Both the position numbers and the translations under genes were made by a program. This document shows, piece by piece, positions 9,788-61,036 of a DNA stretch of 64,000 bases (positions are counted from its first letter, which is position 1; every line of letters begins with the position of its first letter). Origin of the DNA: an uncultured Candidatus Saccharibacteria bacterium (GTDB lineage: Bacteria > Patescibacteriota > Doudnabacteria > UBA920); the NCBI GenBank assembly GCA_964348935.1, contig CAYGEJ010000002.1, positions 3,540 to 67,539 on the forward strand. Reading direction: 5' to 3'. Under the pieces are notes generated by a model. The model did not search any database, was not told the origin of the DNA, and worked only from the letters and a program-made list of their open reading frames with translations.

Positions 9788-9862
9788 GGTGCCCGTAGCT
9801 CAATGGTAGAGCACCGCTCTGTGGCAGCGGCTACGAGGGTCCGATTCCCTTCGGGCACCCCA
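9788..9862 (+). tRNA. tRNA-His (anticodon GTG) with encoded G-1 and CCA
   Basis: Extra 5' G pairing with discriminator C; acceptor gtgcccg/cgggcac; anticodon loop cTGTGgc; T-arm gaggg-tccgatt-ccctt. Confidence 0.8.
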
Positions 9863-28365: not shown

Positions 28366-28441
28366 GGGATGGTAGCTCAGTTGGTAGAGCAGTAGCCTCT
28401 TAAGCTATTTGTCGAGGGTTCGATCCCCTCCCATCCCACCA
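28366..28441 (+). tRNA. tRNA-Lys (anticodon CTT)
   Basis: Acceptor gggatgg/ccatccc; anticodon loop cTCTTaa; T-arm gaggg-ttcgatc-ccctc; encoded CCA. Confidence 0.8.
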
Positions 28442-28586: not shown

Positions 28587-28663
28587 TGGTGCACCCGGTA
28601 GGATTTGAACCTACTACCTCTTGGTTCGAAGCCAAGCGCTCTATCCAAATGAGCTACGGGTGC
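28587..28663 (-). tRNA. tRNA-Arg (anticodon TCG)
   Basis: Reverse complement gives acceptor gcacccg/cgggtgc, D-arm gctc-atttggata-gagc, anticodon loop cTTCGaa, T-arm gtagg-ttcaaat-cctac, and CCA. Confidence 0.75.
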
Positions 28664-31360: not shown

Positions 31361-31372
31361 TAAATAAGCAAA

Positions 31373-32581: not shown

Positions 32582-32590
32582 AGCTTATTA

Positions 32591-40151: not shown

Positions 40152-40156
40152 AAATA

Positions 40157-41185: not shown

Positions 41186-41190
41186 AATAT

Positions 41191-43327: not shown

Positions 43328-44324
43328 TTGTGTGCTGATATAAATTTAACAAAACCTTACTTCCTTCAAAATCATAGTTAAACGGTAATTCGGTTAAGCC
43401 TTTTTCCGAAAGAACCCTTCTAAATTCTTTTCGATTATTGGGAACGAAAAATAAAAATAAACCGCCGCCGCCACTACCCATAATCTTACCTCCTTCAGCT
43501 CCATTTTGCATCGCCAAATCATAAACCTCATCCATCCAGGGATCGGAAATTTTTGCAGACATGGTTTTTTTAGCTTGCCAGTGTTTGTGCATTAACTTAC
43601 CAAAATTACTGCAATCCCCATTTTCAAATTCAGAAAGAATTTGCACTCCTATATTTTTTATTTCTAGCAAAGCCTTTTCTACCTGGCTTTCACTTATAGA
43701 AGCATTTTCACTCTGTTCCTTTAAAATATCTGTGGTGTCATGTTGCTTGTGGGTGTAAAAAAGCACACACTTATACTCGAGCTCTTCTATTAAGTCTGAA
43801 CTTATGTTTGCCTGTCTAGATTTAACCACACCGTCCCTGTCTATATTTAATACAGTAAACCCACCTAAAGAGGCTAAGTACTGGTCCTGTTTACCAATTG
43901 GTTTTTTTAAAGTTTCTAATTCTATTTTGCATGCTAAATCCGCCAACTCTTCCCGGGAAATAACATCTCTATTTAGTTCATACAAGGCTTTAAGTAACCC
44001 TATTAAATACGCAGACGAAGACCCCATTCCGGTTCCAGCAGGAAGGTCTGCAAAAGACGAAATCTCAATTTGGTCATTTATCCCAGCATGCCTTAAAGCT
44101 TCTCTGGCAAGTTCGTGCTTTAATTCCTCTAACTTAACAACAGTTTCAGATGTAGAATATTTTACTCTAATTAATTTATCTACAAGGGGTTTATTTAAGG
44201 CAACGTAAATATACTTATTAATGCTCGCACTAAAAATAAAACCGCCATGTTTTTTGTAAAAATTTGGTAAGTCTGTTCCTCCCCCGCCCAAAGGCATACG
44301 GAATGGTGTTCGTGTAATTATCAT
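43317..44324 (-). CDS. GHMP-family sugar kinase (D-glycero-alpha-D-manno-heptose 7-phosphate kinase HddA-like)
   Basis: MIITRTPFRMPLGGGGTDLPNFYKKHGG N-terminus and GHMP motif PAGTGMGSSSA. Confidence 0.7.
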   Translation of the reverse strand: MIITRTPFRMPLGGGGTDLPNFYKKHGGFIFSASINKYIYVALNKPLVDKLIRVKYSTSETVVKLEELKHELAREALRHAGINDQIEISSFADLPAGTGMGSSSAYLIGLLKALYELNRDVISREELADLACKIELETLKKPIGKQDQYLASLGGFTVLNIDRDGVVKSRQANISSDLIEELEYKCVLFYTHKQHDTTDILKEQSENASISESQVEKALLEIKNIGVQILSEFENGDCSNFGKLMHKHWQAKKTMSAKISDPWMDEVYDLAMQNGAEGGKIMGSGGGGLFLFFVPNNRKEFRRVLSEKGLTELPFNYDFEGSKVLLNLYQHTNGK

Positions 44325-45085
44325 TATTGTTTAAAATACTTATTAGCTTTTTCTAAACTTTCTAAATTATCTATACCAAATAGAGCTTCATGTGGCTCAA
44401 TTACATACCCTTTTAGTTTTTTTAAATTATTTAGCATTTCCGGAAAAACATGCTTGCCAAAATCGTAAAAGGTTTTTGCAGGAATATAGTTTAATACTTC
44501 TGGAGTTAACTTATAAATACCACCATTTACATAATTTATTTCCGGCTTATGCTGGGCTTCGTAAAAACCTACAACATTATTTTGTTCGTCTATTTCCACT
44601 ACACCTCCTGCAATTCCACTGTTTGCACTTTTTGTCCTGTCGAATAACAATAAACTTCCAACCTCGTCTTTTCCTAAAGTTTGTTTTATAAATTTACTAA
44701 AATCTAAATCAAATAAATTATCTCCATACACCACCAGGAACTCTTCATTATTTTTAAAATGATGTTCTACTTTTTTTAAACCGCCTGCGGTTCCTAATAT
44801 TTCCGGTTCATGGGAATATTCGATATTTACACCAAAATCACTACCGTCTCCAAAATAACTAGTAACTGCTTCTGGGAAATAATGTGTATTAATAACTAGC
44901 TCTGTAACTCCCGCATTTTTTAACTGGGTAATTGTTCGTTCTAAAATTTTCTTCCCCGCAACTTCCACCATAACTTTTGGCTGGCTTTCTGTTAACGGAC
45001 GAAGTCTGGTTCCAAGCCCAGCAGCCAATACAAAGGCTTTTCCGCCAAAGGCCGATCCCGCTTCGCGGGACATATTATTTACCAT
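44324..45085 (-). CDS. Sugar-1-phosphate nucleotidyltransferase (heptose-1-P guanylyltransferase HddC-like)
   Basis: AFVLAAGLGTRLRPLTESQPKVMV NTP-transferase motif; about 250 aa. Confidence 0.75.
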   Translation of the reverse strand: MVNNMSREAGSAFGGKAFVLAAGLGTRLRPLTESQPKVMVEVAGKKILERTITQLKNAGVTELVINTHYFPEAVTSYFGDGSDFGVNIEYSHEPEILGTAGGLKKVEHHFKNNEEFLVVYGDNLFDLDFSKFIKQTLGKDEVGSLLLFDRTKSANSGIAGGVVEIDEQNNVVGFYEAQHKPEINYVNGGIYKLTPEVLNYIPAKTFYDFGKHVFPEMLNNLKKLKGYVIEPHEALFGIDNLESLEKANKYFKQ

Positions 45086-45087
45086 AT

Positions 45088-46083
45088 TTATAATTTCTCC
45101 TTAACAACATATTTTTTTATATACTCAATACTTCCACCCATACCCTGCTCCAAACTAACTTTAGGCTTCCAACCTAAAGCACTGGCTTTGGTTATGTCTG
45201 CTAAATTCTCCTGCGCCTCTCCAACTTGGTCTGGCCTAAATTCTGGTTCAATATTACTTCCTAAAATATTTTTTATAGTTTGAAAAATATCCAAAATAGA
45301 AATATTTTTTCCTGTACCGAGGTTATAAATTTCGCCATTAGTACGATCATCGTTCATAGCCAAAATATGAAAATCGTTTAAATCGTCTACATGAATAAAA
45401 TCTCGGCGTTTACTGCCATTACCATAAATAATAGGACTTTCGCCTTTTAACATTTTTATTATAAAAGCGCTAAAAACTGGTGGAATACTACGTCGATAAT
45501 CTTGCCTTGGTCCGTAAACATTAAAATAGCGTAGCGCAGTGGTCTTGAGTCCGTAAAAACGTTCGAATGCCTCGCCAAAATATTTAGTTGCCATTTTACT
45601 CACTGCATAAAAAGTTTCCGGATGTTCGTCTGTTTCCGGTGTTGGTAAAATTTTACTACCCTCATATATTGCAGAAGTTTCAGCATAAATTACTTTACGC
45701 ACCTTTGCCTTAGCAGAGGCTAAAAATACATTTACAGTTCCAGTTACATTTATATCTGCCGTACCCAACGGGTCAGTTTGACAATCTGGAATGCTGTTTT
45801 TTGCAGCAAAATGAAAAACTGTATCTACCCCTTCAAATATCGGATAAATTTCCGGACTTCGAATATCTAACTGATGAAATTTAACCCCTGTTGGGATTTG
45901 CTCTTTGACTCCATAAGCTAAATTATCTATACCTATTACTTCGTACCCTTCCCCAATCAATCGATCTGCCAAATTACTTCCAATAAATCCAGCGACACCT
46001 GTAATTAAAACTTTTTTATTAGCCATATCTTTACAAAATTTTAACAAGTAATTGTACTGAATTTTACCATAAAAATGCCTCAA
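45088..46083 (-). CDS. NAD-dependent nucleotide-sugar epimerase/dehydratase (candidate GDP-heptose 4,6-dehydratase)
   Basis: VLITGVAGFIGSNLADRL, YxxxK in YAVSKMATKY, 331 aa; located within the heptose gene set. Confidence 0.8.
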   Translation of the reverse strand: MRHFYGKIQYNYLLKFCKDMANKKVLITGVAGFIGSNLADRLIGEGYEVIGIDNLAYGVKEQIPTGVKFHQLDIRSPEIYPIFEGVDTVFHFAAKNSIPDCQTDPLGTADINVTGTVNVFLASAKAKVRKVIYAETSAIYEGSKILPTPETDEHPETFYAVSKMATKYFGEAFERFYGLKTTALRYFNVYGPRQDYRRSIPPVFSAFIIKMLKGESPIIYGNGSKRRDFIHVDDLNDFHILAMNDDRTNGEIYNLGTGKNISILDIFQTIKNILGSNIEPEFRPDQVGEAQENLADITKASALGWKPKVSLEQGMGGSIEYIKKYVVKEKL

Positions 46084-46096
46084 TAGGCAATAAAAA

Positions 46097-46636
46097 TTAA
46101 CTTAAATACTTAGGAATTTGCCCTAGAGATTCCACCTGAAAATCAAAGCCGGTAACTTCTATATTATATTTTGTCTTGACTAAAATACTTTTTATTCCAG
46201 CGTTCATGGCGCAGTCTATATCTTTCTGGCTATCACCCACCAAATAACTTTCTTCAAGATTTATCCCATAATCTTTTACTGCATCTAACACTAGTCCAAT
46301 TTTTGGTTTTCTACAATTACAATTATCCTTGTTGTCATGAGGGCAAACATAAATAGCGTTTATAGTTGGGATGTGTATTTTTAAAAAATCATGCATTTGG
46401 TTTAGTTCTTCCCATTCCATTTTGTTTCTTGCAATATCTGGTTGGTTGGTAATAATAATATTTAAAAAACCCAAAACTTTGGTTTTTGCAAGCACCTCTG
46501 CAACACCCTCAAATAAGTTAAAATCCTGATATTTTAATGGCGAGACATTTTGTTGGCCATCTTGCCTAAGAGCAACAACATGGTTTAAAACTCCGTCCCT
46601 GTCCCAAAATATCGCTTTGTTGTTAAGTTGTGTCAT
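46097..46636 (-). CDS. gmhB: D,D-heptose 1,7-bisphosphate phosphatase GmhB (HAD-IIIA)
   Basis: IFWDRDGVLN HAD motif I; Cys cluster CPHDNKDNCNCRKP; GDS motif III. Confidence 0.8.
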   Translation of the reverse strand: MTQLNNKAIFWDRDGVLNHVVALRQDGQQNVSPLKYQDFNLFEGVAEVLAKTKVLGFLNIIITNQPDIARNKMEWEELNQMHDFLKIHIPTINAIYVCPHDNKDNCNCRKPKIGLVLDAVKDYGINLEESYLVGDSQKDIDCAMNAGIKSILVKTKYNIEVTGFDFQVESLGQIPKYLS

Positions 46637-51664: not shown

Positions 51665-53218
51665 TTATGAAATTCTTAAAAACTTAAACACAAAAGACTT
51701 CAATATTGTTGAATCTTCCTTATTCATAAAACCAAAAATATAATACAGACCAAAGTACAGTACTATAGATAGCGGACCTATAACAATAAGCGTCCATACC
51801 GAATTCACCAGATCGACTAAGGCAAAGTGAATAACTAATGCGTCTATAATCGCAGTAAAAATTAACTTAGCGTACAAGATTAAGTAGTCGTTTAATCTCC
51901 CAGACAAAACAAATAAATTTTTCTCAATCCAATAAAAAGCATAGCTCATGGGGAGCACAGAAATAAAATAAGCCCAAGCCGCGCCCATAATCCCAAACCT
52001 TGGCACAAAAATAATCAACAAAATAAAATTTACTACCGCCATAAATATTGACTGCTTGATTAAAAATTTTACTTTCCCCAAACCAAGTAGCAATCCCTGC
52101 AGTGGCATGTATAGAGCGATTAAAAAATAAGTCAGTGTTAACACTATTAATACCTTAGCACCACGATCTGCATACTCTTGGCCAAGCCAAAAAAATAATA
52201 TTTTTTCGCCAAATAACATAATGGAGACAGTTACCGCAGCTGAAATTACGTGCAAATTCCTAAACGCTCTAATATAAATATTCTTCAACTTTTCCTTATC
52301 CCCTGCCCCGGAAAATTCACTCGCCATAGGAAAAAGCATTTGTCCGAAAGTGTTAGTAACAACAGACGTCTTCATTGCCACATTCCCAGGCACACTATAA
52401 AACGGTAACTGTGCCGGCCCCAAAAATATTGGAATTAATAATCTATCCAAAAAAATTAAACTACTAGAAGCGAGATTGGCCGCAAAAGCTAAAAAACCAA
52501 ATTTATATGCTTTTACTAATTCGGACTTAACAAATGTAAAATTTAATTTTAATTCAGGCATTATCTTTCTTACAAAATAATGAAAAAATATTAAAGTTAC
52601 CAATGCCAACAAAGCATTTAAAACCATTAATGCTTTTAACCTGTAATGCATTTCTAACAATACAATACTGCCAATACTACTTACAGCTAAACTAGCTAGA
52701 TTTAATTTGGTTAACAAATCAAATCTTTGAAGAGCAGTTAATACTGCACCATAAACTGTACTTAAACTAGTAAACAAAAAAGTAATCCCTGCAAATAAAA
52801 AAACAATAAAAATATGATTTACACTAGTAAAGCCAATATTAAATAACGGTAAAAACCATTTTCCTAAAACAAAAAAAATCATTAAGCCTAATAGCCCGGT
52901 TATTAAGAATAATAGCCTCGCAGAACTTAATAAATCTTTTAAACCTTCAATATTACCACTACCTTTATATTCAGATGCAAACTTGGTTACTGCAGTACTT
53001 AAACCCAAGTCAACATAATTAATAAATGAGCTTATTGCGTTAATTAAAATTAAAATCCCATACTCACTGGCGCCAAGTTTTATTACCATCATCCTGGTCA
53101 ACAAGATAGTAAAAACCATTGGCAATAAAAAGTTGGCAAACAAAAATACTGAATTTCTTAAAGTTTTATATGATAGTGAGCTTTCTTCCATTAATTTATT
53201 CCTTATAATTTTGTTCAA
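51665..53218 (-). CDS. MOP-superfamily polysaccharide flippase (Wzx-like)
   Basis: About 14 TM helices, 517 aa, with the Polysacc_synt-type organisation. Confidence 0.7.
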   Translation of the reverse strand: MNKIIRNKLMEESSLSYKTLRNSVFLFANFLLPMVFTILLTRMMVIKLGASEYGILILINAISSFINYVDLGLSTAVTKFASEYKGSGNIEGLKDLLSSARLLFLITGLLGLMIFFVLGKWFLPLFNIGFTSVNHIFIVFLFAGITFLFTSLSTVYGAVLTALQRFDLLTKLNLASLAVSSIGSIVLLEMHYRLKALMVLNALLALVTLIFFHYFVRKIMPELKLNFTFVKSELVKAYKFGFLAFAANLASSSLIFLDRLLIPIFLGPAQLPFYSVPGNVAMKTSVVTNTFGQMLFPMASEFSGAGDKEKLKNIYIRAFRNLHVISAAVTVSIMLFGEKILFFWLGQEYADRGAKVLIVLTLTYFLIALYMPLQGLLLGLGKVKFLIKQSIFMAVVNFILLIIFVPRFGIMGAAWAYFISVLPMSYAFYWIEKNLFVLSGRLNDYLILYAKLIFTAIIDALVIHFALVDLVNSVWTLIVIGPLSIVLYFGLYYIFGFMNKEDSTILKSFVFKFLRIS

Positions 53219-53954
53219 AATTTTTCAGTTCGTCAGGTGTCCCAATTATCCACCGGGTTAAAACTGATGCAATTTTAATGTGTTTGCCTGCTACAATTAG
53301 TTCGTTATAACACGGACCAACATAAAATTCATTATTATAGGTTTTGTTGCCGGCAAATTGGGTTTCCGCTGCTTGCACGTAGTCCGAGCCTTTTTTAAAA
53401 TAGTACATACCAATCGTCGCCAAATTGGATATTGCCTGTTTTTCTGCCACCTCTACCACATTTCCACCACTATCAACTTTCGCATAACTATAGCTTGGGT
53501 TAGTTGCTTCAAAGCAAGGAATAACCCCATCTGGGTCTTCTTTAACAATTATATCCCAAATATTGCTGGTCATATAAGTATCGCAATTGTAAATAAACAG
53601 CTTACTGTCGTTGTCTATGTACTGCTTGGCAAGCATACACGATTTACTTTGACCATTTAAAACCCCAGTCGCAGGAATAACTATAGTCTGTTCTCCAAAC
53701 AGTGCTTTGAGCTTAACGTCTATTTGATACTTTTCTATATGTTCATGCAAAACCACAAAAATCAATCTGTAATTCTGAATTTTATCTAAAAAATTAAAAG
53801 ACTTCATTGCCCACTCCACCATAGTCTTTCCCAATACCGGTATTAAAGGTTTTGGATCTATAAACCCTGCCTGAACAAACCTAGAACCCATTCCGGCCAT
53901 TGGAATTAAAATATTCACCTGTGCTTGATTTTCTGAATAAAATTTTGAGTCCAC
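53196..53954 (-). CDS. NTP-transferase-fold protein (putative (cyclitol/alcohol/sugar)-phosphate cytidylyl- or nucleotidyltransferase)
   Basis: ILIPMAGMGSRF...KPLIPVLGKTMVEW glycine-rich nucleotide-binding N-terminus, as in IspD/LicC/NTP_transf_3. Confidence 0.5.
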   Translation of the reverse strand: MDSKFYSENQAQVNILIPMAGMGSRFVQAGFIDPKPLIPVLGKTMVEWAMKSFNFLDKIQNYRLIFVVLHEHIEKYQIDVKLKALFGEQTIVIPATGVLNGQSKSCMLAKQYIDNDSKLFIYNCDTYMTSNIWDIIVKEDPDGVIPCFEATNPSYSYAKVDSGGNVVEVAEKQAISNLATIGMYYFKKGSDYVQAAETQFAGNKTYNNEFYVGPCYNELIVAGKHIKIASVLTRWIIGTPDELKNFEQNYKE

Positions 53955-54116
53955 ATGCTTCCTTTTCTCATACCTAAGTATGGCTTAAAAACAAACCCTC
54001 AATTAGGTTAATTATTCAAAGTTATTGTAGCATTTTTTCCACCCAAACAACAATATTTAAAGCTTTAAATTAAATTGACACTGAGCCTTAAAAATAGGTA
54101 TGATACCTAAAATAAT

Positions 54117-55097
54117 ATGCATATGGAAGTCACTAAACTAAAGGGCGGAAGTCTTAGCGGAACCTATTTATACCAGGAAAAAAATGCTTCCTTTATTCGA
54201 AAAAAGGTGTCTTTAAACGAAAATAGAGAATTTGGTTTTTATCGCTGGTTTTCACAATTGAAAAAACTCCAGTCTCTAGGACGAGAGTTCCCAAATCTAT
54301 TTCCAAGGGTAACCAACATTGGTACCGAAGAAAATACAGCATTTTATGATATGGAGTATATTGCCAATGCTCTTACTGGTTTTGAATTCTTAACAAGCAA
54401 TAGACCCCAAACAGAAGTTGATATTTTTTTTCAAAAACTGATCACAGCTATGGAGTCTATTCATAGTATAAAAATTCCTTCTTTTAAAGGTGGATTGGAT
54501 TTATATTTAGACCAAGAAGTTAGACAAGCTATTGAACTTTGCAAATCCGAGCCATTTTTTTCATCATTCTTGGAATATAAAACCATTTTTTTTAACGGCA
54601 AAGAAACCAAGCCACTACTAGCAAATTTAGATAAATTTTATTTACTTGCTAACAAATATTACACAAAACCTGAAGAATGTTTAACCCACGGAAACATTAC
54701 TTTAGAAAATATTCTTTATATTCCCGAATCCCAACGGATAGTATTCATTGATCTTTACCAAGAAAATTATGTAGATACAATATACAATGAATATTCTCAA
54801 ATTTTACAAAGCTCAAATAGCTACTATGAAGTCTACAATTCCAATTCCGCCCAAGCTGAAATTCAAGAAAATAAAGTACAAATTCATGCGGATAGAATTC
54901 CAAATCTAGATTACTTTAATACCCTATTCAATAACTATTTAAACTCCAAACTGTCACCTGAGGAATACAAACTGACAAAACTCTACGAAGTGACTCAGTT
55001 TACCAGACTGCTCCCTTTTAAGAAAGTTGTCGCCAAAGATAAAATGATTTTCTTTTACGCCCTAGCTTCTAATTTACTCGAGACAATTTCAGAATAA
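54117..55097 (+). CDS. APH/choline-kinase-like phosphotransferase
   Basis: Brenner-like catalytic loop LTHGNITLENILY and IVFIDLY (the DFG-equivalent). Confidence 0.5.
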   Translation: MHMEVTKLKGGSLSGTYLYQEKNASFIRKKVSLNENREFGFYRWFSQLKKLQSLGREFPNLFPRVTNIGTEENTAFYDMEYIANALTGFEFLTSNRPQTEVDIFFQKLITAMESIHSIKIPSFKGGLDLYLDQEVRQAIELCKSEPFFSSFLEYKTIFFNGKETKPLLANLDKFYLLANKYYTKPEECLTHGNITLENILYIPESQRIVFIDLYQENYVDTIYNEYSQILQSSNSYYEVYNSNSAQAEIQENKVQIHADRIPNLDYFNTLFNNYLNSKLSPEEYKLTKLYEVTQFTRLLPFKKVVAKDKMIFFYALASNLLETISE

Positions 55098-55104
55098 ACA
55101 TTTT

Positions 55105-56253
55105 ATGGATTTTATCCCAATTATAACCTCTAAACAAAAATGGACTGTGGAAGCCAAACTCCCCACAACTTTTTTTGTGCAGTTCTCTAATAATTTATTT
55201 GAACCTGAAAATAAAGATTTACTAAGCACTGGAAAAACAGGTAAAGGTGCGAGAAGGCTTATGGTAATTGACGAAAATGTTTATCTACATCATGGAAAAA
55301 AAATAGAAAACTATTTTTCACAAAATGGTATTACCCACAGTACCCTCTTGCTAAAATCCGAAGAAATTAAGAAAGACTGGGAAACCACTATTCAAATTTT
55401 ACATGCAATGGAAAACTTTAAATTGGAACGCACTGGCGAACCAGTAATTGCCATAGGTGGTGGAATTCTTTTAGACTTAGCCGGATTTGCCGCAAACTTA
55501 TACAGACGTGGCGTACCATACATTCGAGTACCAACAACCCTACTTGCTTTAGTGGATGCCAGTGTTGGTGTAAAAACAGGGATAAACCATTTTGGCAGAC
55601 GCAACAGACTCGGCTCTTACTATGCCCCGGTAGGAAGTTTTTTGGATTCATCTTTTTTAACAACTCTACCCGAAAAAGATTTAAGTAACGGTTGTGGTGA
55701 AATTTTAAAAATGGCAGTAATTAAAGATGCTAGCTTATTTTCCCTTCTTGAAAATTTTGGCAAAAAACTAATTGAAAATAAATTTCAGCCGAGCATCGAA
55801 AGCACAGAAGTTATTTACCGCTCCATTCAAGGTATGATTGAAGAACTAGAACCCAACCTTTGGGAAACAGATATGCGTAGGTTGGTAAATTTTGGCCATT
55901 CTTTTAGCCCTATGGTGGAAATGAACGCTCTACCAGAACTTTCACATGGTGAGGCTGTTGCTCTAGATGTTTTATTTTCCAGTATTATTTCGGTAGAACG
56001 CGGACTTATGCGTTTGGACGAAGTCTACAGAATTTATGAAACTATGAAATCTTTAGGACTACCCACCTATCATGAATTATTTAAAAACCAACAAATTCTA
56101 GAAGAAAGTCTAGCGGACACAATACGCCACCGTAATGGGGCTCAAGAGTTACCAATCCCGGTTTCCATTGGTCGTGCCATTTTTATAAACGATATAAACG
56201 CACAAGAAATTAAGAACGCAGCTGAAATAATGAGAAATAAGTTTACTATATGA
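55105..56253 (+). CDS. 3-dehydroquinate-synthase-like sugar-phosphate cyclase
   Basis: GGGILLDLAGFAA, RVPTTLLALVDASVGVKTGINHFGRRNRLGSYYAP and the metal-binding SHGEAVALD. Confidence 0.8.
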   Translation: MDFIPIITSKQKWTVEAKLPTTFFVQFSNNLFEPENKDLLSTGKTGKGARRLMVIDENVYLHHGKKIENYFSQNGITHSTLLLKSEEIKKDWETTIQILHAMENFKLERTGEPVIAIGGGILLDLAGFAANLYRRGVPYIRVPTTLLALVDASVGVKTGINHFGRRNRLGSYYAPVGSFLDSSFLTTLPEKDLSNGCGEILKMAVIKDASLFSLLENFGKKLIENKFQPSIESTEVIYRSIQGMIEELEPNLWETDMRRLVNFGHSFSPMVEMNALPELSHGEAVALDVLFSSIISVERGLMRLDEVYRIYETMKSLGLPTYHELFKNQQILEESLADTIRHRNGAQELPIPVSIGRAIFINDINAQEIKNAAEIMRNKFTI

Positions 56254-57335
56254 GCAAAGATTACTTGGCTAAACCGTCCAATCTAGATACGCATTACAAA
56301 GCACTTTCTTTGCGTTACCAAAATGCCCCATTTAGAGTTTGTGGAAAGAGTGGTTTAAAGCTTCCTCCTCTCTCACTTGGCTTATGGCAAAATTTTAGTG
56401 ACGTTGATCCATACTATAATTCCCGGGAAATGATTCTTGGTAGTTTTGATTTAGGTATTACGCATTTTGATTTGGGTAACAACTACGGCAAACCACCTGG
56501 CTCCGCTGAAAAAACCTTAGGAAGAATTCTAAAAGAAGACTTAGGTAGATATAGAGACGAATTAATAATTTCCACTAAAGCCGGTTACGATATGTGGCAA
56601 GGACCATACGGAGAAAATGGTTCTAAAAAGCATATTATGGCAAGTATAGACCAAAGCCTTACTAGACTTGGACTTGATTACGTAGATATTTTTTACTCTC
56701 ATAAATTTGACAAAAACACACCACTTGAAGAAACTATGGAAGCATTGGCTCAGATTATAAAAACAGGTAAAGCACTTTATGTTGGAATTTCCTCATATGG
56801 ACCCGAGGAAACTAAACAGGCTTTTAAAATTTTAAACTCCTTTGGAGTCAGAAATATAATTGCCCATCAAGCCTCTTATTCCCTACTAAACCGCTGGGTG
56901 GAAGAAGGACTTCTAGAAACTTTAGAAGAATTAGGAATTGGCTGCGTGGCCTTTAGCTCTTTAGCCCAAGGGTTATTAAGCAACAAGTATACTAGTGGAA
57001 TTATTCCTGAAGTTTCCAGAATGTCTAACAAAGAAACTTTACTAGAGAAAAAAATATTAAACCCCGAAGTCTTAACCGCCTTAAATGGACTGGCAAAAAT
57101 AGCGAAAAACCGTAACCAAACTCTGTCTCAAATGGCCTTGGCTTGGGTGTTAAGAAACAAGGTTGTAAGCTCAACTGTAATTGGAGCTAGGAGTCTAGAA
57201 CAAATCAAAGAAAATTTGGGCAGTTTAAATAATTTAAGTTTTTCCGAAGCGGAACTAAACCAAATAGACCAATTTGCAAAAAACATTCCCGGAGTAAACC
57301 TCTGGCCACCCAACTGCCAAACATCCGAAGTGTAA
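56250..57335 (+). CDS. Aldo/keto reductase (Tas/YghZ-like)
   Basis: The AKR catalytic tetrad context (D..Y..K..H) within LGITHFDLGNNYG...; 361 aa. Confidence 0.85.
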   Translation: MSKDYLAKPSNLDTHYKALSLRYQNAPFRVCGKSGLKLPPLSLGLWQNFSDVDPYYNSREMILGSFDLGITHFDLGNNYGKPPGSAEKTLGRILKEDLGRYRDELIISTKAGYDMWQGPYGENGSKKHIMASIDQSLTRLGLDYVDIFYSHKFDKNTPLEETMEALAQIIKTGKALYVGISSYGPEETKQAFKILNSFGVRNIIAHQASYSLLNRWVEEGLLETLEELGIGCVAFSSLAQGLLSNKYTSGIIPEVSRMSNKETLLEKKILNPEVLTALNGLAKIAKNRNQTLSQMALAWVLRNKVVSSTVIGARSLEQIKENLGSLNNLSFSEAELNQIDQFAKNIPGVNLWPPNCQTSEV

Positions 57336-57342
57336 ACATTTT

Positions 57343-57380
57343 AAAAAACTTGTCCCAGTATATATTGGGGCAAGTTTTTT
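57343..57380 (+). terminator. Rho-independent terminator
   Basis: aaaaaacttgtccc...ggggcaagtttttt. Confidence 0.55.
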
Positions 57381-57482
57381 AGTATTGACCCAAGCCTAAT
57401 TTTAAGCTAAAATAATCAATCGTGGTCAAAGAACTTTTGCAGTAGATACCACGAAAGCCGTTACAACAAAACGGGAGGAACA

Positions 57483-58385
57483 ATGATCAAGACATCTGAA
57501 GTTAAAAAAATGCTGTCAGCAGTTCTTGCTTCGATGACTGTTTTGCGGGCTTACCAGCTCGGGGAACGGATCCTACCAGCAGAAGGAAGCGACATCAAAC
57601 CACTTGACCAGAGCCTATTAAGCCGGGCAGATCGTGAGAGTGGCGAGGTGGCAATGAAAATTTTGTCCAAACTCCCTCTCAAGTACGACATCAAACCCGA
57701 AGACACCAAAGGCCGAACAACTCCAGGCGCTCAGAATGTGGTGATGTATGACAATGCGGACGGCACTCGCCCGCTAGTCAACGGACTCAAAACCTCCACA
57801 GTCATTTTGGCCGTCTACGACCTCAAGAAAAAAAAGGTCGTATTTGTAATTATTGGCGAACCCATTTCCGGAGACATTTGGTATGGTGGAGACTCTACAC
57901 CACCAATGCGGTGCAATAAGTATAAAAGAGGTGATAAGCCAAAACCCATTCAGGTCAACCAACATCCTCTCGACGGCCAAGCTACGGTGTTCATTGACTA
58001 TGTCAACAAGATTGGCTTTGCCCGCAAAACCAAAGACGGATCGAGGCAGATCTTTAACGGCGAAGAAAGCAAGGAAATCTGGAATACCGTATACGATCTT
58101 GGTGTCAACATCCTTATGCCCGGTTCCAACGGCCAGCACCAAGCAATGGTTGCCAATGGAGGTGAAAAGACAGTCGCCGGCTTAACCCTTGCAATGGGTG
58201 GTCCTTGGGACGCTGCCGGAGTCTTCCTGGTTATTCTTGCAGGTGGCTACGCCCGGGCCTTCAAACGATCTGAGAATGGTTTTAGCGAGCAGGATCCGCT
58301 GGACCCCACGAGCTACGATATTGCCGTCTACGGCAACTGCAAAGAAGCGGTGGACAAATTCTGTTCCGCTTGTCGATTTGCATAA
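57483..58385 (+). CDS. GC-rich (apparently acquired) inositol-monophosphatase/FIG-superfamily phosphatase-like protein
   Basis: DNADGTRPLVNG matches the IMPase DPIDGT motif and GGPWDAAGVFLVILAGG matches WDxAAG. GC content is far above the flanks. Own SD GGGAGGA. Confidence 0.65.
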   Translation: MIKTSEVKKMLSAVLASMTVLRAYQLGERILPAEGSDIKPLDQSLLSRADRESGEVAMKILSKLPLKYDIKPEDTKGRTTPGAQNVVMYDNADGTRPLVNGLKTSTVILAVYDLKKKKVVFVIIGEPISGDIWYGGDSTPPMRCNKYKRGDKPKPIQVNQHPLDGQATVFIDYVNKIGFARKTKDGSRQIFNGEESKEIWNTVYDLGVNILMPGSNGQHQAMVANGGEKTVAGLTLAMGGPWDAAGVFLVILAGGYARAFKRSENGFSEQDPLDPTSYDIAVYGNCKEAVDKFCSACRFA

Positions 58386-58393
58386 CACAACCC

Positions 58394-58448
58394 GAACAGG
58401 TAAATCTGAGCGCTAAAGACGCCAGAGATACCTGTTCTTATTTTTTTT
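58394..58448. terminator. Bidirectional terminator between convergent genes
   Basis: gaacaggta ... tacctgttc followed by tta-TTTTTTTT. Confidence 0.4.
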
Positions 58449-59748
58449 GTTTCTTATTTAAAACAACAGCAATACCCTTTTTTATATCTCGTTCAAAAGC
58501 ATCTAAAGTAAATTTACTAAAACATACTTCAACAGATTTTTTTGCTCTCTCGGAAAGCCATTGCCCTGACTGGGTAGAGACAAACTTTACAGCTTGTTTA
58601 ACATTCTCTAAATTAATTTCTGAAATTACATAGGCACCATCTTCTTCTGGCATATTACAGCCGGTACTGACCACTGGAATTAAACCATACTGTACACAGT
58701 CCAATACCCCACCGGGAATACTTTCAGAAACCGAAGGCTGAATAATAAACCCGCACTTTTCTATAATATCATAAAACTTTTTTGAACGTTGTTTTAAGTA
58801 ACCTATTTCATGAATATTTTTTTGTTCGTCTAACTTTAACGTCTGACGAATGAGTGGATGCACCTCACAGCACAAATACAAATGGTTTTCGGTTCCAATA
58901 AAACTTTCTATTACTAAATCTAAACCTTTTCTTATATTGTCTCGCCCACCACCAAAAAATAAAAAATGTTTTTTTGCTTTTTCAAGTGCTTCGGGACTTA
59001 AATCTTTTTTATACTTAGTGTCTAAACAAATACCTGTTGTGGTATTGAAATCTGGAACAAAAGGCTGCACAAAAGACTTAGACATTAAATCTCCTATTAC
59101 TAACATTCCATCTGCTTTTTTAATACAAGCATCCTCTCTTTCAGCCTCCGCCTGAGTTTTCATAAAATAATTTAAGTCTTTTTCAGGAAGTTCTACTCCA
59201 TGTCGCTGCTTAAAAGCTAAAAGTCTTTCATTAACTCCTTTATCTACCACTCGCCAATAGGCTACAACTGCAAAAAATATATATAAAGTTTCTTTGGTTA
59301 AATACTTTTGCAGACTTTCGTAATTATAAAAACCTGGAGCAAATATTAAATCGTATTTTTCTTTAGTTTGATAATCACAGTTATCGAGTTTAATTGCATC
59401 TACAACATAACCCATTTCATTTAAAGCCTTGGCTAAACTTAAAATTACTCCGTTATTACTAAAATAATATTTTAGGTTTCCAATATAATACTCCTTATAA
59501 AAAGGACCTATCATATAATTTAGTAAAGCTCTTTTTGGATTTTTAATACCTTTTGGTAAATACTTATCATAACCTATTATTACGTTGTAGTTACCATTAA
59601 AAATATAACTCTTGGCCACATAATATAGAGCTGTGATACCACCAATAAGTTTATTTACTAAAATATTAATACTTTCAACAATGGTTAAATCTGCAGATTT
59701 GAATAACCATGCGAGTCTTCCCCACTTTCCTAAAAATTTATCAGCCAT
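58438..59748 (-). CDS. Putative GT-B (GT4-like) glycosyltransferase
   Basis: C-terminal SESIPGGVLDCVQYGLIPVVS resembles the GT4 E..G...E....G.P.V motif. Confidence 0.45.
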   Translation of the reverse strand: MADKFLGKWGRLAWLFKSADLTIVESINILVNKLIGGITALYYVAKSYIFNGNYNVIIGYDKYLPKGIKNPKRALLNYMIGPFYKEYYIGNLKYYFSNNGVILSLAKALNEMGYVVDAIKLDNCDYQTKEKYDLIFAPGFYNYESLQKYLTKETLYIFFAVVAYWRVVDKGVNERLLAFKQRHGVELPEKDLNYFMKTQAEAEREDACIKKADGMLVIGDLMSKSFVQPFVPDFNTTTGICLDTKYKKDLSPEALEKAKKHFLFFGGGRDNIRKGLDLVIESFIGTENHLYLCCEVHPLIRQTLKLDEQKNIHEIGYLKQRSKKFYDIIEKCGFIIQPSVSESIPGGVLDCVQYGLIPVVSTGCNMPEEDGAYVISEINLENVKQAVKFVSTQSGQWLSERAKKSVEVCFSKFTLDAFERDIKKGIAVVLNKKQKK

Positions 59749-59824: not shown

Positions 59825-61036
59825 CTAATAAAAACCGAGCTTGCTACGAATTTTATTAGCGAATGGAATTAAGCCAAACTTATTTAAAATAGGATACAAC
59901 ACCAACAAAATTCTTTTCAACCTAAACTTTAATGTTTGTAAATTTAAGCCTTGATTTTTTAAAGAATAAGGATTATAAACAATTTCTAAATTTCTTTTTC
60001 TTGCCTGCTCTAATTTTTTAACATCTACCGCTTTGTTAATATCAATTTCTTTAATTCTACTTTTCCAAAATAAAGGAATATCTTGAAGACCGATTTTTAA
60101 ATCGGTTCCATTTTCAGGATCTCTAAAACTATATTTTTCAGCTTGTGGATTAATATTTACCCAACCCTCCCTATTTTTCTCGTAACCATAGGCAATACGA
60201 ATATTATTTTCAAAAAAACCCGGAGGTACAAATAACGAAGGGACTTGGTCAAGTCTAATTTCTAATTTTCCACCTAGTGTGTGCTCGTAACTGTCATAAT
60301 GCGCAGCTAACTGATTTTTTGGAATTATTAATACTTCATCAATAACTTTAACTTTACCTGCGACATCTTCCGCCCGTGCAATTCTCTGCTCCCCAAACTC
60401 CACCGAATTAAACCAAATATAAAACAAGTCTTTACTTACCACTACACAAGAATTAAATTCACCTCTGGGTTCTAATGCTATAATTGCGTCTTCGTCTTCA
60501 TGCAGTACTGTTGTCTCTTTGCAAAAATGATCAAATATTATACTCTTGGGATTCGTTACGTTTATATACTCACTAAAATGAGAGTATGCAATAGCTACAT
60601 TTTTATAAGTCTTGTGTAATTCAATTGCCTTTTTTTCAAGTTTTTTAAAATATTCAATCTGTTCTTCATTACTTAAAAGCAAAGGGTGATCATTATTTGG
60701 CGCATAGAATATAAATTCGTCTGCCATCTTGTCCAGTATTTCAATAGACTTTCTGTATTCTGCCTGTGTTGCGCTACGATTTCCAATAATAATAGCTTTT
60801 GGAAAAAGACTTCTAGCATAACTTTCAAATTCTACAGCCTCTTTGCTGTCGTCTAACTGATACTTTATTAATACATTACTCCAAGGAAATATTGCATAAC
60901 TTGCAAGACTATACTTGGAAATATTAAATCTGGTATTAAATGAATAAATTTTATTTTTTGATCTAAAATTATCTTTAACAGGCTTTGGCCTACCAAAAGG
61001 AATATCCGTTATATAACAATCAAAATATAAAATCAT
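59825..61036 (-). CDS. Hypothetical soluble protein of the glycan locus
   Basis: 403 aa with native codon usage; no motif recognised. Confidence 0.35.
   Translation of the reverse strand: MILYFDCYITDIPFGRPKPVKDNFRSKNKIYSFNTRFNISKYSLASYAIFPWSNVLIKYQLDDSKEAVEFESYARSLFPKAIIIGNRSATQAEYRKSIEILDKMADEFIFYAPNNDHPLLLSNEEQIEYFKKLEKKAIELHKTYKNVAIAYSHFSEYINVTNPKSIIFDHFCKETTVLHEDEDAIIALEPRGEFNSCVVVSKDLFYIWFNSVEFGEQRIARAEDVAGKVKVIDEVLIIPKNQLAAHYDSYEHTLGGKLEIRLDQVPSLFVPPGFFENNIRIAYGYEKNREGWVNINPQAEKYSFRDPENGTDLKIGLQDIPLFWKSRIKEIDINKAVDVKKLEQARKRNLEIVYNPYSLKNQGLNLQTLKFRLKRILLVLYPILNKFGLIPFANKIRSKLGFY

Follow-up and report, generated by a model that had tools for sequence, protein, structure and literature searches.

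A conserved sugar-phosphate cyclase cassette that may supply a nucleotide-activated C7 cyclitol to surface glycans

The C7 cyclitols reviewed to date are all secondary metabolites or sunscreens (PMC12904256). NDP-cyclitols have a precedent in GDP-valienol (PMC9200736), whose synthesis involves kinase, phosphatase, and nucleotidyltransferase steps. The window, a 64,000-nucleotide stretch of DNA from an uncultured Candidatus Saccharibacteria bacterium, carries a cassette of genes around a DHQS-like cyclase. The cassette is often inside cell-surface polysaccharide loci, suggesting a surface-glycan building block that has not yet been described. No glycan structure with a C7 cyclitol is known to us.

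Layout and conservation of the cassette

The five open reading frames that the sequence-only reading had singled out lie where it placed them and belong to the families that it named (Table 1). It had taken the five genes as a single module. This was not borne out, since the NTP-transferase gene is divergent and the IMPase-like gene lies past a terminator. The kinase-like, cyclase, and AKR genes form one operon, in which the start of the AKR gene overlaps the stop of the cyclase gene by 4 nt and which is ended by a hairpin terminator. None of 200 shuffled sequences was as stable as this hairpin, which looks like a bidirectional intrinsic terminator. On the other side of the divergent intergenic region, the NTP-transferase gene comes first in a minus-strand operon with the Wzx gene, which abuts it directly on the 3′ side. 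The kinase gene is preceded by a promoter-like site, although such sites are in total no more numerous in the surrounding region than shuffling predicts. The IMPase-like gene forms its own transcription unit, with a promoter-like site at 57385–57413 and a GGGAGG ribosome-binding site.

Table 1. Coordinates, strand, and supporting evidence for the features of the window.
Feature	Position	Strand	Evidence or remark
Bac_transf enzyme	34473–35789		
GmhA-like	39549–40151	−	Below NCBIfam equivalog cut-off
HddA-like	43317–44324	−	Below NCBIfam equivalog cut-off
HddC-like	44324–45085	−	Below NCBIfam equivalog cut-off
GmhB-like	46097–46636	−	Below NCBIfam equivalog cut-off
Wzx-type (MOP family) flippase	51665–53218	−	PF13440 and MatE matches; 13 hydrophobic segments
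Small sugar/alcohol-phosphate nucleotidyltransferase, 4EVW-like family	53196–53954	−	PF00483, 4EVW
Promoter-like site, TTGACA-18-TATGAT, 11/12	54075–54104	+	Consensus match; ahead of kinase gene, in 162-bp intergenic region
Kinase-like protein, APH/fructosamine-kinase/NahK fold, predicted cyclitol kinase	54117–55097	+	AlphaFold and Foldseek, linkage
ValA-type sedoheptulose-7-phosphate cyclase (EEVS-like)	55105–56253	+	4P53, NJ tree, conserved columns
AKR14/YghZ-like aldo-keto reductase	56250–57335	+	PF00248, 233.6 bits; AKR14A1/YghZ-like, 4AUB/3N6Q, 397 bits
Strong hairpin, flanked by A and T runs	57341–57382	.	RNA fold dG −23.2 kcal/mol, z −7.2
Divergent IMPase-family phosphatase, accessory	57483–58385	+	PF00459, 23.6 bits, below gathering score 27
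GT-B-like glycosyltransferase, candidate transferase for activated cyclitol	58438–59748	−	PF13692 and PF00534, E about 3e-4
Soluble 403-aa protein, second candidate for transfer step	59825–61036	−	Kept with cassette in L033

The conserved core consists of four genes, for the NTP-transferase, the kinase-like protein, the cyclase, and a ketoreductase, and it occurs in many unrelated bacteria and in some archaea. The kinase gene lies directly upstream of the cyclase gene in 24 of the 25 loci, and these are spread over 12 or more lineages, DPANN archaea among them. The loci belong to Saccharibacteria, Holophagaceae, Myxococcales, Fibrobacteria, Polynucleobacter, Desulfobulbaceae, Balneolaceae, Rhodoferax, Bacteroidetes, Actinomarina, Verrucomicrobiota, and Marinomonas, together with two archaea. 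An NTP-transferase of the same family is found no more than two genes away from the kinase in 23 of the 25 loci. Furthermore, one protein (P0262) is a natural fusion of the kinase and the cyclase. Because the kinase–cyclase pair recurs in this way across many phyla and has been fused once, the gene grouping is far beyond chance. The position directly after the cyclase is taken by an AKR in 10 loci and by an unrelated, classical SDR in 18, which amounts to non-homologous replacement at a single position. No conserved transferase accompanying the cassette was found in the loci compared.

The enzymes of the cassette

The cyclase has the Pfam domains DHQ_synthase and DHQS_C, and its best NCBIfam name is aroB, as would be expected if the gene were the AroB of the shikimate pathway and had come to lie in this group by coincidence. 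However, the aroB score is 227, while the cut-off is 305. The best solved relative of the cyclase is ValA EEVS (4P53, E = 1.7e-95), about 190 bits ahead of any DHQS; DDGS, DHQS, and DOIS follow far behind (5TPR, 1.7e-61; DHQS, about 1e-37; DOIS, 4e-20). In a neighbor-joining tree that took in EVS, DDGS, DHQS, and a second EEVS clade, the cyclase falls inside the ValA clade, distant from DHQS and EVS. In its GHSFSP motif, a proline stands at the place of the phosphate-binding histidine of DHQS (GHTxGH). We attach next to no weight to the AroB explanation. The comparisons support the assignment of this DHQS-family protein, from its sequence, as a sedoheptulose-7-phosphate-cyclase-type enzyme of the ValA/EEVS clade, and they bear out the sequence-only reading, which had called it a sugar-phosphate cyclase and pointed to clade placement and discriminating residues as the means to tell. 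The metal ligands and the substrate-binding residues are kept, and at about 90 conserved EEVS-like columns the cyclase agrees at all but V121I, L257M, and D262N. Asn262 corresponds to Asp281 of ValA, one of two sites reported to tell EEVS from DDGS (PMC4426668). The cyclase clade has this asparagine, and the product may therefore be something other than EEV.

The kinase-like protein of the window gave no Pfam or NCBIfam match of its own, including to choline kinase or LicA. A Foldseek search with its AlphaFold (AF2) model (pLDDT 93.4) returned fructosamine-3-kinase, N-acetylhexosamine 1-kinase (NahK), APH(3′), and MTR kinase, with E values from 2e-8 to 1e-6 and 3JR1 and 4OCJ among the structural matches. 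Thus, the predicted structure resembles the APH/ChoK-like fold that had been proposed earlier, and two anomeric sugar kinases, NahK and MTR kinase, are among its nearest structural neighbours. Several members of the family match PF01636 or PF01633. The catalytic loop is THGNITLEN, with asparagine in place of the usual catalytic aspartate, and HGN rather than HGD is present in 177 of the 178 family members. Since the canonical catalytic aspartate is missing from the family, the kinase activity is assumed and not secure.

Could the kinase and the NTP-transferase be ordinary LicA/LicC-type machinery for phosphocholine or another small alcohol, with the cyclase and AKR as unrelated neighbours? The fold also occurs in choline kinases, and weak PF01633 matches were seen for some members of the family. 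However, the window kinase itself lacks any such match, the cyclase adjoins the kinase in nearly all loci and once in a single chain, and the window genes scanned included no LicD or LicB family member. These points make the LicA/LicC explanation very improbable. They agree with the earlier view that the kinase/NTP-transferase pair is tied to the cyclase, with which it occurs across phyla.

The NTP-transferase matches PF00483 at 30.1 bits (gathering score 21.2). Among solved structures it is closest to 4EVW (96 bits), and it has weak matches to rmlA_long, Arch_glmU, and GalU. It is predicted to make the NDP-cyclitol. The AKR is predicted to be the ketoreductase that acts on the cyclase product. 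It is assigned to the pathway, in agreement with its place in the earlier module, because the unrelated SDR holds its position in the other loci. The window AKR is very near to the housekeeping YghZ/AKR14A1, which counts against this role.

What is the function of the IMPase-like protein? Only a five-member family was found for it, across which the E-D, DxxDGT, and WDxAG motifs are invariant, and its four homologues match PF00459. The nearest homologue on a long contig (P0252) is in a locus without a cyclase. An IMPase-family gene lies directly after the AKR gene on the P0020 contig and about 5 kb from the cassette, with GDPD and HAD genes, in L030. Since only these two other loci have such a gene adjacent or close to the cassette, we regard it as accessory. 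Of the earlier proposal that this phosphatase belongs to the module, the family assignment stands, while membership of the conserved core does not. The enzyme probably acts on a cyclitol phosphate.

Glycan genes around the cassette

Glycosyltransferase genes flank the cassette on both sides in the window. The PF13692 and PF00534 scores of the GT-B-like protein (weak GT1) are below the gathering score, and no PDB sequence match was found for it. Searches of Pfam, NCBIfam, and PDB with the 403-aa protein gave no match, and it has no hydrophobic segments. The layout of the window is seen again in L033, where the order of NTP-transferase and Wzx genes is retained, a 434-aa GT1 lies beside the homologue of the 403-aa protein, and this Pfam-less protein of 403 aa is located between the GT1 and Wzx. 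The GDP-heptose-type genes of the window (39549–46636, minus strand) are interleaved with other sugar genes, and the assignments support a second S7P-consuming pathway in the locus. These four families (GmhA-, HddA-, HddC-, and GmhB-like), along with a carbamoyltransferase, also lie beside the cassette in L035. The earlier proposal of a surface-glycan locus with a shared S7P pool is thus upheld by the Wzx, glycosyltransferase, and GDP-heptose genes and by the co-occurrence of GDP-heptose genes with the cassette in a second locus.

In other genomes, the cassette is often found in glycan loci, with Wzx, Wzz, glycosyltransferase, KpsC/S-like, NeuB, and GDP-heptose genes; in a few cases it occurs alone. 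Some copies are among Wzy_C/DegT genes and others among KpsC/S-like and NeuB genes, and ManC-GT2-Wzz-GT9 and ABC2-GT10-WavE-NeuB neighbourhoods were also seen. GT2 is the commonest family among 115 neighbouring genes, and a glycosyltransferase or other glycan gene is present within 10 kb in about 17 of 24 loci.

A possible route to an NDP-cyclitol

We infer all of the chemical steps that follow, and the glycan destination, from the family assignments, linkage, fusion, reductase replacement, and operon structure observed. The ValA-type cyclase would act on S7P, releasing phosphate and giving a C7 keto-cyclitol, either 2-epi-5-epi-valiolone or, because of the Asp-to-Asn change, possibly a stereoisomer. 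The AKR, or in most other genomes the SDR, would reduce the ring ketone to a saturated C7 cyclitol, a valiolol-type carbasugar. The APH-fold kinase would then re-phosphorylate the cyclitol, a step that could come before or after the reduction, and the nucleotidyltransferase would join the cyclitol phosphate and an NTP to give the NDP-cyclitol. Finally, a locus-specific transferase, for which the GT-B-like and 403-aa proteins are candidates, would use the NDP-cyclitol to place the cyclitol, or more plausibly cyclitol phosphate, on an undecaprenyl-linked glycan begun by the Bac_transf enzyme and exported by Wzx. The NDP ester of a saturated carbasugar is a poor donor in ordinary glycosyl transfer, and a scan of window genes gave no LicD-, TagF-, or CDP-alcohol-type phosphotransferase; both points count against this route. 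We found no description of this pathway chemistry in the literature, as far as searched. We lean somewhat toward the cassette leading from S7P through a C7 cyclitol and its phosphate to an NDP-cyclitol for a surface glycan. If this is correct, a nucleotide-activated carbocyclic "pseudo-sugar" would be a building block new to surface glycans.

The cyclitol phosphate might instead be an acceptor or head group, much as in the synthesis of di-myo-inositol phosphate or phosphatidylinositol phosphate, in which the role of IMPase is established. It would be joined to a partner activated by the NTP-transferase, and the IMPase would remove the remaining phosphate. The position of the IMPase-family gene in the window, on the P0020 contig, and in L030 fits such a scheme, as does L032, in which the cassette-type NTP-transferase lies beside an IMPase-like gene with neither cyclase nor kinase. 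However, most cassette loci have no IMPase, that of the window is in a separate transcription unit, and no gene of the CDP-alcohol phosphatidyltransferase family was found in any of the annotated neighbourhoods. We consider an acceptor role quite improbable.

The cassette could also make a soluble C7 cyclitol, for example a pseudo-sugar or a metabolite resembling a glycosidase inhibitor, or one that serves as a signal or compatible solute. The presence of the cassette in glycan loci would then reflect shared precursors or hitch-hiking on mobile islands, with no incorporation into a polymer. This would be in keeping with the nature of the C7 cyclitols reviewed, with the want of a conserved dedicated transferase, and with several neighbourhoods. 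In L031, the cassette is a bare four-gene operon amid chemotaxis and regulatory genes; no glycan genes were found within 10 kb there or in L007, L009, L010, and L013, and the P0020 contig has a single GT2 nearby. We regard a soluble product, taken together with this account of the gene position, as rather unlikely. A nucleotidyltransferase would be pointless for a free cyclitol, yet it accompanies the kinase in almost every locus. Furthermore, the cassette lies between a flippase and glycosyltransferases in at least eight independent AKR-type loci and several SDR-type loci, and in the window the NTP-transferase gene is co-oriented with, and abuts, the gene of the Wzx flippase.

Layout of the cassette and its surroundings

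All five open reading frames that the sequence-only reading had joined into a cyclitol-like module are present in the window and, as it had also claimed, they are flanked by a MOP/Wzx flippase on the left and a GT-B-like protein on the right. The kinase and cyclase genes are 7 nt apart, and the cyclase and aldo-keto reductase (AKR) genes overlap by 4 nt. The NTP-transferase gene, on the other strand, either overlaps the Wzx gene by 23 nt or is separated from it by 4 nt, depending on the start codon chosen, and it is the first gene of an operon that runs on into Wzx, SDR, DegT, and glycosyltransferase (GT) genes. The same division is seen in L033, the closest relative on a long contig (cyclase 73% identical), with the NTP-transferase and Wzx genes on one side and the kinase, cyclase, and AKR genes on the other. 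In L033, the copies of the GT-B-like gene, a gene for a 403-aa protein (unk403), and a GT2 gene have been relocated beside Wzx.

Features of the window and of loci in other genomes (those marked L)
Feature	Position	Remark
tRNA genes	629-701; 933-1004; 9789-9859; 28366-28438 (+); 28590-28663 (-)	five, at Rfam gathering threshold
PilM, PilC/T2SSF, PilB/T2SSE	30269-34345	type IV pilus assembly
Junction of pilus genes and initiating phosphoglycosyltransferase	30269-35789	genes abut
GFO/IDH/MocA oxidoreductase	40157-41185	IolG-like
Wzx-type flippase	51665-53218	13 helices; MOP/Wzx
NTP-transferase	53196-53954 (-)	cassette
Promoter-like site TTGACA-18-TATGAT	13 nt before kinase start, in the 162-bp divergent spacer	near-consensus
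Kinase-like protein	54117-55097 (+)	cassette
Cyclase	55105-56253 (+)	cassette
AKR	56250-57335 (+)	cassette
19-bp hairpin, A and T runs on either side	6 nt past AKR stop	dG -23.2 kcal/mol, z -7.2
Promoter-like site and GGGAGG ribosome-binding site	downstream of hairpin	for the IMPase-like gene
IMPase-like protein	57483-58385 (+)	accessory
GT-B-like protein	58438-59748 (-)	weak GT1 matches
unk403	59825-61036 (-)	no family
Carbamoyltransferase region, L003/L005	14693-18545	
Carbamoyltransferase region, L034	9164-10873	
Carbamoyltransferase region, L035	10607-13008	
TAL_FSA gene, L035	1743-2390	four genes upstream of cassette
Kinase-like and NTP-transferase pair, L016	9818-11745	
RuBisCO-like gene group, L032	10968-14716	

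The cassette lies in a large surface-glycan locus that begins directly after the type IV pilus genes and runs from 34.5 kb to the end of the window. In order, this locus encodes a Bac_transf initiating enzyme, GT2, Acyl_transf_3, and FkbM methyltransferase; a GmhA-like SIS protein, a GFO/IolG-like oxidoreductase, SDR, and UDP-sugar dehydrogenase; an HddA-like GHMP kinase, an HddC-like nucleotidyltransferase, an epimerase, and a GmhB-like HAD phosphatase; and GT1, GT2, DegT, SDR, Wzx, the cassette, GT-like genes, and epimerases. The heptose genes which the sequence-only reading took to share a sedoheptulose 7-phosphate (S7P) pool with the cyclase are thus present, with all four assignments falling below the NCBIfam equivalog cut-offs. 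The locus has Bac_transf, Wzx, and no fewer than six GT-like genes, and no Wzy-like polytopic or O-oligosaccharyltransferase-like protein was found within the window; a Wzy may be encoded past the 64-kb end, or the glycan may consist of one unit. Comparison of unk403 and the GT-B-like protein with PDB sequences and Pfam gave nothing except weak GT1 matches.

The junction of pilus genes and initiating phosphoglycosyltransferase recurs in L032, a homologous locus of a related genome, with other glycan genes behind it, so that the locus resembles a hypervariable glycan island occupying one fixed site in the chromosome. Two of the five tRNA genes are about 1.5 kb from the pilus block ahead of the glycan locus. 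The oxidoreductase in the heptose/amino-sugar part of the locus has inositol 2-dehydrogenase IolG as its best NCBIfam model (141 bits, cut-off 355), and its substrate could be a sugar nucleotide or a cyclitol.

Identity of the cyclase and its partner proteins

The cyclase matches PF01761 and PF24621, the two-domain fold of the DHQS family, and its Glu/His/His metal ligands (E199, H265, and H281) are in invariant columns. Compared with solved relatives, it scores 323 bits against ValA (4P53), 211 against Anabaena DDGS (5TPR), at most 131 against DHQSs, 75 against DOIS, and about 30 against glycerol-1-phosphate dehydrogenases; the identity is 43.5% to ValA, 35% to DDGS, and 25% to EVS. In a neighbor-joining tree, with EEVS, EVS, and EboD-like references taken from an eLife 2015 supplement, it falls in one clade with ValA and the EEVS of Streptomyces sp. 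CNY228, apart from DDGS, EVS, DHQS, and a second EEVS clade (Cja_3250, SMCF_997, and AciPR4_1231). In about 90 columns with at least 93% conservation over a set of about 140 EEVS-like sequences, the window cyclase departs only at V121I, L257M, and D262N, and the agreement covers the metal ligands plus the Lys, Asn, and Arg substrate-binding positions.

The third of these departures is at a diagnostic site. Asp-281 and His-360 (ValA numbering) are the fingerprint pair reported to distinguish EEVS from DDGS (PMC4426668). When these positions are mapped through the 4P53 alignment, Asn-262 (in LVNFGHSF) aligns with Asp-281, and this EEVS fingerprint residue is therefore absent, while His-342 (in RHRNG) matches His-360, which is Thr in DDGS. 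At the Asp-281 site, DDGS has Ala, and EVS and DHQS have Asn. Asn-262 together with Met-257 is fixed in an 18-member clade that includes the window, a Saccharibacteria MAG, and a Parcubacteria protein annotated SalQ, and all other homologues have Asp. It is possible that this subclade makes a stereoisomer other than 2-epi-5-epi-valiolone, a suggestion from the alignment that we make tentatively.

Could the protein be an AroB, the alternative raised by the sequence-only reading? It reaches 227.4 bits with TIGR01357, for which the equivalog cut-off is 305, and ValA is far closer. Furthermore, in the motif GHSFSP it has Pro at the second His of GHTxGH, as EEVS and DDGS do, whereas H. pylori DHQS and EVS keep His; this position is the phosphate-binding His-275 in A. 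nidulans DHQS. The tree also places it far from DHQS, in the ValA lineage. We rejected AroB for these reasons and file the protein as a putative S7P cyclase of the ValA lineage, with the exact product left open.

The kinase-like protein has no match in Pfam or NCBIfam, and its only PDB sequence matches are marginal, to APH(2'') (E about 4e-3). Since the family profile also found no match among PDB sequences at E ≤ 0.01, the fold was set by AF2 and Foldseek instead. The AF2 model, built from 26 family members (pLDDT 93.4, pTM 0.91), matches 3JR1, 4OCJ, 3Q2J, and 2PU8 with a Foldseek probability of 1.00 and TM of 0.45-0.64, and the nearest solved folds are fructosamine-3-kinase, N-acetylhexosamine 1-kinase, APH(3'), APH(2''), and methylthioribose kinase. 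The predicted structure is that of a bilobal eukaryotic-like small-molecule kinase. Two of these nearest kinases phosphorylate anomeric hydroxyls and feed nucleotidyltransferases, which fits the role proposed here. The Gly-rich loop KGGSLSGTY and the Lys of VRKE are conserved in the family, and two residues are invariant: N198, which is the second Asn in the catalytic loop, and D212, the metal-binding Asp of FIDxYEEN. However, in the catalytic loop itself, H-G-N-x4-N (THGN[I/L]TLEN), 177 of 178 members have Asn in place of the catalytic Asp. Kinase activity is thus a parsimonious assumption, and the protein is a putative kinase.

A word-indexed search gave 265 matches to the kinase family, and an exhaustive search of 1.84 billion representatives gave 111 at E ≤ 1e-30. 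Many of the kinase matches are on contigs equal in length to those of the cyclase matches. The plasmid collections queried with the kinase gave no match, and the phage collections gave one weak match in an unannotated phage bin. More remote relatives of the kinase domain (E 1e-28 to 1e-33) include P0351, P0356, P0373, and other proteins of 620-740 aa, in which a C-terminal fusion joins the domain to LPG_synthase_TM, a membrane domain resembling the MprF flippase; in further relatives the fusion partner is Acyl_transf_3 or a HAD domain. These architectures appear to be uncharacterized. One family member of 480 aa, P0255, has a C-terminal GIY-YIG plus NUMOD3 homing-endonuclease module; the explanation is a fusion call or else insertion of a mobile endonuclease beside a cassette.

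The NTP-transferase passes PF00483 (30.1 bits, gathering score 21.2), and its PMAGMGSRF fits the N-terminal G-x-G-[ST]-R signature. Its best relative is 4EVW (96 bits), an uncharacterized Vibrio cholerae "NDP-sugar pyrophosphorylase", and it is only remotely similar to RmlA, GlmU, and GalU. The AKR narrowly misses the cut-off of NF007388 (423.8 bits, cut-off 448) and scores 397 bits against AKR14A1 structures; by sequence it is classed as an AKR14-like (YghZ) protein.

The fifth gene did not keep the place that the sequence-only reading gave it. Four of the five genes form a conserved core, but the IMPase-like gene is outside it, with no homologue in any of the 24 genome loci and with one homologue, P0252, in a syntenic pilus-plus-glycan locus that has no cyclase. 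The protein scores 23.6 bits with PF00459 (gathering score 27), and an indexed search gave a family of five sequences; four homologues carry precomputed PF00459 matches. The family alignment shows no variation in the metal-binding motifs E73-D74, D90-N-A-D93-G-T, and W242-D243-A-A-G; a five-sequence AF2 model had a pLDDT of 44.6, too low to be used. With five homologues, and with L032 lacking a cyclase, the gene might be unrelated to the cassette. That reading is softened by the P0020 contig, in which a different, canonical Inositol_P gene directly follows the AKR gene, and L030 (Parcubacteria) has another Inositol_P gene about 5 kb from the cassette. We read the IMPase-like protein as a recurrent accessory of the AKR-type variant and, from its family motifs, plausibly a cyclitol-phosphate phosphatase. 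In L032, a gene for a RuBisCO large-subunit-like protein of 403 aa lies in the glycan locus, adjoining a cassette-family NTP-transferase gene, a WavE gene, and an IMPase-like homologue, with no cyclase or kinase; this group may be another unusual precursor-supply module.

Distribution and genomic setting

Twenty-four loci came from a profile-guided scan that took one genome for each species. The hosts are Saccharibacteria, Holophagaceae, several Myxococcota, Fibrobacteria, Polynucleobacter, Desulfobulbaceae, Balneolaceae, Rhodoferax, Bacteroidetes, Actinomarina, Verrucomicrobiota, Marinomonas, an unclassified gammaproteobacterium, a Woesearchaeote, and another archaeon. The nearest cassette relatives of the window are in Saccharibacteria and Parcubacteria MAGs, and exact protein matches were found solely in metagenome-derived assemblies; the GC content of the window is about 35%. 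The window also shares pilus-plus-glycan synteny with L032, in which there is a RuBisCO-like gene too, and taken together these four features suggest that it comes from a Patescibacteria (CPR) genome.

By ORF calling and phmmer, the kinase gene is followed directly by an EEVS-like cyclase gene in 24 of 25 distinct loci, and an NTP-transferase homologue is within two genes of the kinase in 23 of them. In P0262 (728 aa), the kinase-like domain and the cyclase are naturally joined in one protein. An AKR gene follows the cyclase gene, often overlapping it, in the window and in L004, L005, L006, L007, L030, L033, L034, L035, and the P0020 contig, and in 18 loci a classical 230-aa SDR takes the AKR position. 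That one NAD(P)H-dependent reductase family stands in for another in the same slot speaks for ketoreduction of the cyclase product as a built-in part of the pathway, and for the YghZ-like AKR as a recruited enzyme, not a bystander. Clustering of all neighboring ORFs found no families co-conserved beyond the four genes; just generic epimerases and DegT recur. The NTP-transferase family extends past the cassette, since the member in L032 (35% identical) has no kinase or cyclase nearby. A kinase-like gene directly followed by an NTP-transferase gene, with no cyclase, was seen in a single locus, L016 (Rhodovibrionaceae bacterium A322), and the substrate of this pair may be imported or made by another route.

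The neighbors of the cassette are often glycan genes. A GT or other glycan gene is within 10 kb in about 17 of the 24 loci, and GT2, which accounts for 9 of the 115 genes around 18 cassettes, is the commonest family, ahead of epimerases, DegT, GT1, Wzx-type, and Wzz genes. The neighbors are Wzy_C, DegT, and a carbamoyltransferase in Saccharibacteria; ABC2, GT10, three WavE genes, and NeuB in Parcubacteria; UGD, Wzx, and GT2s in the Woesearchaeote; and GT4, transaldolase, carbamoyltransferase, and a full GmhA/HddA/GmhB/HddC set in L035. In Polynucleobacter the order is ManC-GT2-Wzz-cassette-GT9-DegT, and two loci have KpsC/S-like, NeuB/NeuC/NeuA-like, WavE, and ABC-transporter genes. Conversely, L031 is a bare four-gene operon amid chemotaxis genes, and four further loci have no glycan genes within 10 kb.

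Proposed route, known counterparts, and destination of the product

In the proposed route, S7P would be cyclized with loss of phosphate, in line with the established mechanism of the DHQS/EEVS family, the ring ketone would be reduced by the AKR or SDR, a hydroxyl group would be phosphorylated by the APH-fold protein, and the phosphate would then be nucleotidylated to give an NDP-cyclitol. We regard this four-step logic, which is drawn from the gene content, as likely. A saturated carbasugar cannot form an oxocarbenium ion, so transfer of the cyclitol phosphate to give a phosphodiester, as with ribitol, glycerol, or choline phosphate, seems chemically likelier than a pseudo-glycosidic mechanism. 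Enzymes that build C-N and C-O bonds from GDP-valienol, the pseudoglycosyltransferases, are known (PMC9200736).

The GDP-valienol branch of validamycin and acarbose biosynthesis (ValA/AcbC, ValC/AcbM/AcbU, AcbJ, ValB/AcbR, and VldE/AcbS) likewise starts from S7P and an EEVS-type cyclase. There, reduction and phosphorylation of the cyclitol, an optional phosphatase step, and nucleotidylylation give an NDP-cyclitol for a GT-like enzyme (PMC9200736). However, the cassette kinase is APH/FN3K-like and its reductase is an AKR or SDR, neither of which is in the acarbose description. The known kinases of those pathways are ROK/glucokinase-like and the known reductases Zn-ADH-type. In addition, the cassette NTP-transferase is a small, 250-aa RmlA-like protein and not GlgC-like (no glgC model match), the cassette itself has no aminotransferase, epimerase, or dehydratase, and there is no GT5- or GT20-type pseudoglycosyltransferase here. 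The setting is a Wzx-type surface-glycan locus instead of a secondary-metabolite cluster, and the hosts span many phyla and archaea, not only actinomycetes.

The GDP-D-glycero-alpha-D-manno-heptose pathway, found in the same locus here and in L035, also draws on S7P, uses a kinase, a phosphatase, and a nucleotidyltransferase, and feeds a surface glycan, but it has an isomerase instead of a cyclase, a GHMP kinase, and a HAD phosphatase, and its product is a true glycosyl donor. Carbocyclic monosaccharide units occur in O-antigens as caryose (Burkholderia caryophylli) and bradyrhizose (Bradyrhizobium) (PMC9671505). These differ in being C9 and C10 compounds, with a carbocycle that is fused to an ordinary sugar or derives from one. 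We know of no S7P cyclase or NDP-cyclitol route linked to either. In the CDP-inositol/di-myo-inositol-phosphate pathway (IPCT/DIPPS), a GT-A-fold cytidylyltransferase activates a cyclitol phosphate and an IMPase-family enzyme finishes the synthesis. That cyclitol, however, is a C6 compound from MIPS, whereas the cassette has a DHQS-family cyclase; in addition, no domain of the CDP-alcohol transferase type was seen here, and the IMPase is not constant in the cassette.

A further parallel, and a rival, is the choline-phosphate type of module. The LicA/LicC/LicD phosphocholine and TarI/TarJ CDP-ribitol systems likewise combine a kinase or reductase with a GT-A-fold nucleotidyltransferase in a glycan locus to make an NDP-alcohol. 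LicA and the choline kinases have a fold in common with the cassette kinase, and their chemistry fits a non-glycosidic polyol. In the cassette, by contrast, the substrate would be a carbocyclic C7 polyol that the cyclase produces de novo. The kinase has no choline/ethanolamine kinase match at threshold (a family homologue scores 16.6 bits on PF01633, gathering score 29), it is linked to the cyclase in nearly all loci and fused to it in P0262, and no LicD- or TagF-type phosphotransferase was found among the window genes scanned. The search for LicD or a LicB permease covered about 35 genes at 27-64 kb, three of whose proteins lack a family, and was negative. Canonical LicA/LicC machinery, which the sequence-only reading had considered as an alternative, was rejected on these grounds; no independent LicA/LicC pair emerged.

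What is the destination of the NDP-cyclitol? In L030, L032, and L034, the cassette-type NTP-transferase gene has WavE genes beside it, but WavE was rejected as a conserved transferase, since jackhmmer found none in the window or other loci and hhalign gave <1% probability against unk403, unk310, and a 285-aa protein of L003. Neighbor clustering, jackhmmer, and hhalign together found no co-conserved transferase family. Modules that supply nucleotide sugars typically show such an absence, since the transferases they serve are specific to each locus, although a pathway with a soluble product would show it too. The near-universal nucleotidyltransferase tips the balance to a donor function. We lean, with moderate confidence, towards a glycan as the destination of the product in the window locus.

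C7 cyclitols are parts of drugs and agrochemicals (acarbose and validamycin), sunscreens (gadusol and MAAs), and symbiosis factors. A 2026 review of cyclitol biology makes no mention of polysaccharide, LPS, or capsule, nor does it link these compounds to the cell envelope (PMC12904256). Full-text searches found no literature linking EEVS or C7 cyclitols to LPS, capsule, or O-antigen, although this gene neighborhood may have been mentioned earlier elsewhere. NDP-cyclitols in validamycin and acarbose, and supply modules for alcohol phosphates and heptose in glycan loci, are already known. Three features are new. An EEVS-type cyclase is teamed with non-homologous partners, namely a kinase of the APH fold, a reductase of the AKR or SDR type, and a small nucleotidyltransferase resembling 4EVW; the cassette extends widely over bacterial phyla and DPANN archaea; and it turns up repeatedly in surface-glycan loci. 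We offer, as a possibility at somewhat less than even confidence, the broader reading that C7 cyclitols are nucleotide-activated building blocks or phosphodiester decorations of prokaryotic surface glycans, supplied by a compact, horizontally mobile four-gene cassette in CPR, several Gram-negative phyla, and DPANN, with the Asn subclade making another stereoisomer.

If the cassette feeds a glycan, a carbocyclic, glycosidase-resistant unit would be added to the building blocks of prokaryotic glycans, and many EEVS genes outside natural-product clusters, including those of uncultivated CPR and DPANN, would be explained. The proposed route would also be a new minimal enzymatic way to NDP-carbasugars (cyclase, AKR or SDR, APH-fold kinase, and small nucleotidyltransferase), useful in glyco-engineering. 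Two points of enzymology become testable: a kinase family that works with Asn for the catalytic Asp, and the steering of the stereochemistry of the cyclase aldol step by the Asp-281 position. Polynucleobacter sp. 80A-SIGWE is a cultured carrier of the cassette in which the hypothesis can be tested directly.

Two further gene associations were observed. A NodU/CmcH-type carbamoyltransferase (PF02543 and PF16861) is a few genes from an AKR-type cassette in three independent loci, accompanied by DUF5989 in two of them and, in one of those two, by an SxtJ-like small protein as well. The association hints that either the product or the glycan is O-carbamoylated; the window encodes no such enzyme. 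In L035, which has heptose genes in the same locus, the gene of the TAL_FSA transaldolase/fructose-6-phosphate-aldolase family upstream of the cassette is possibly a dedicated S7P supply.
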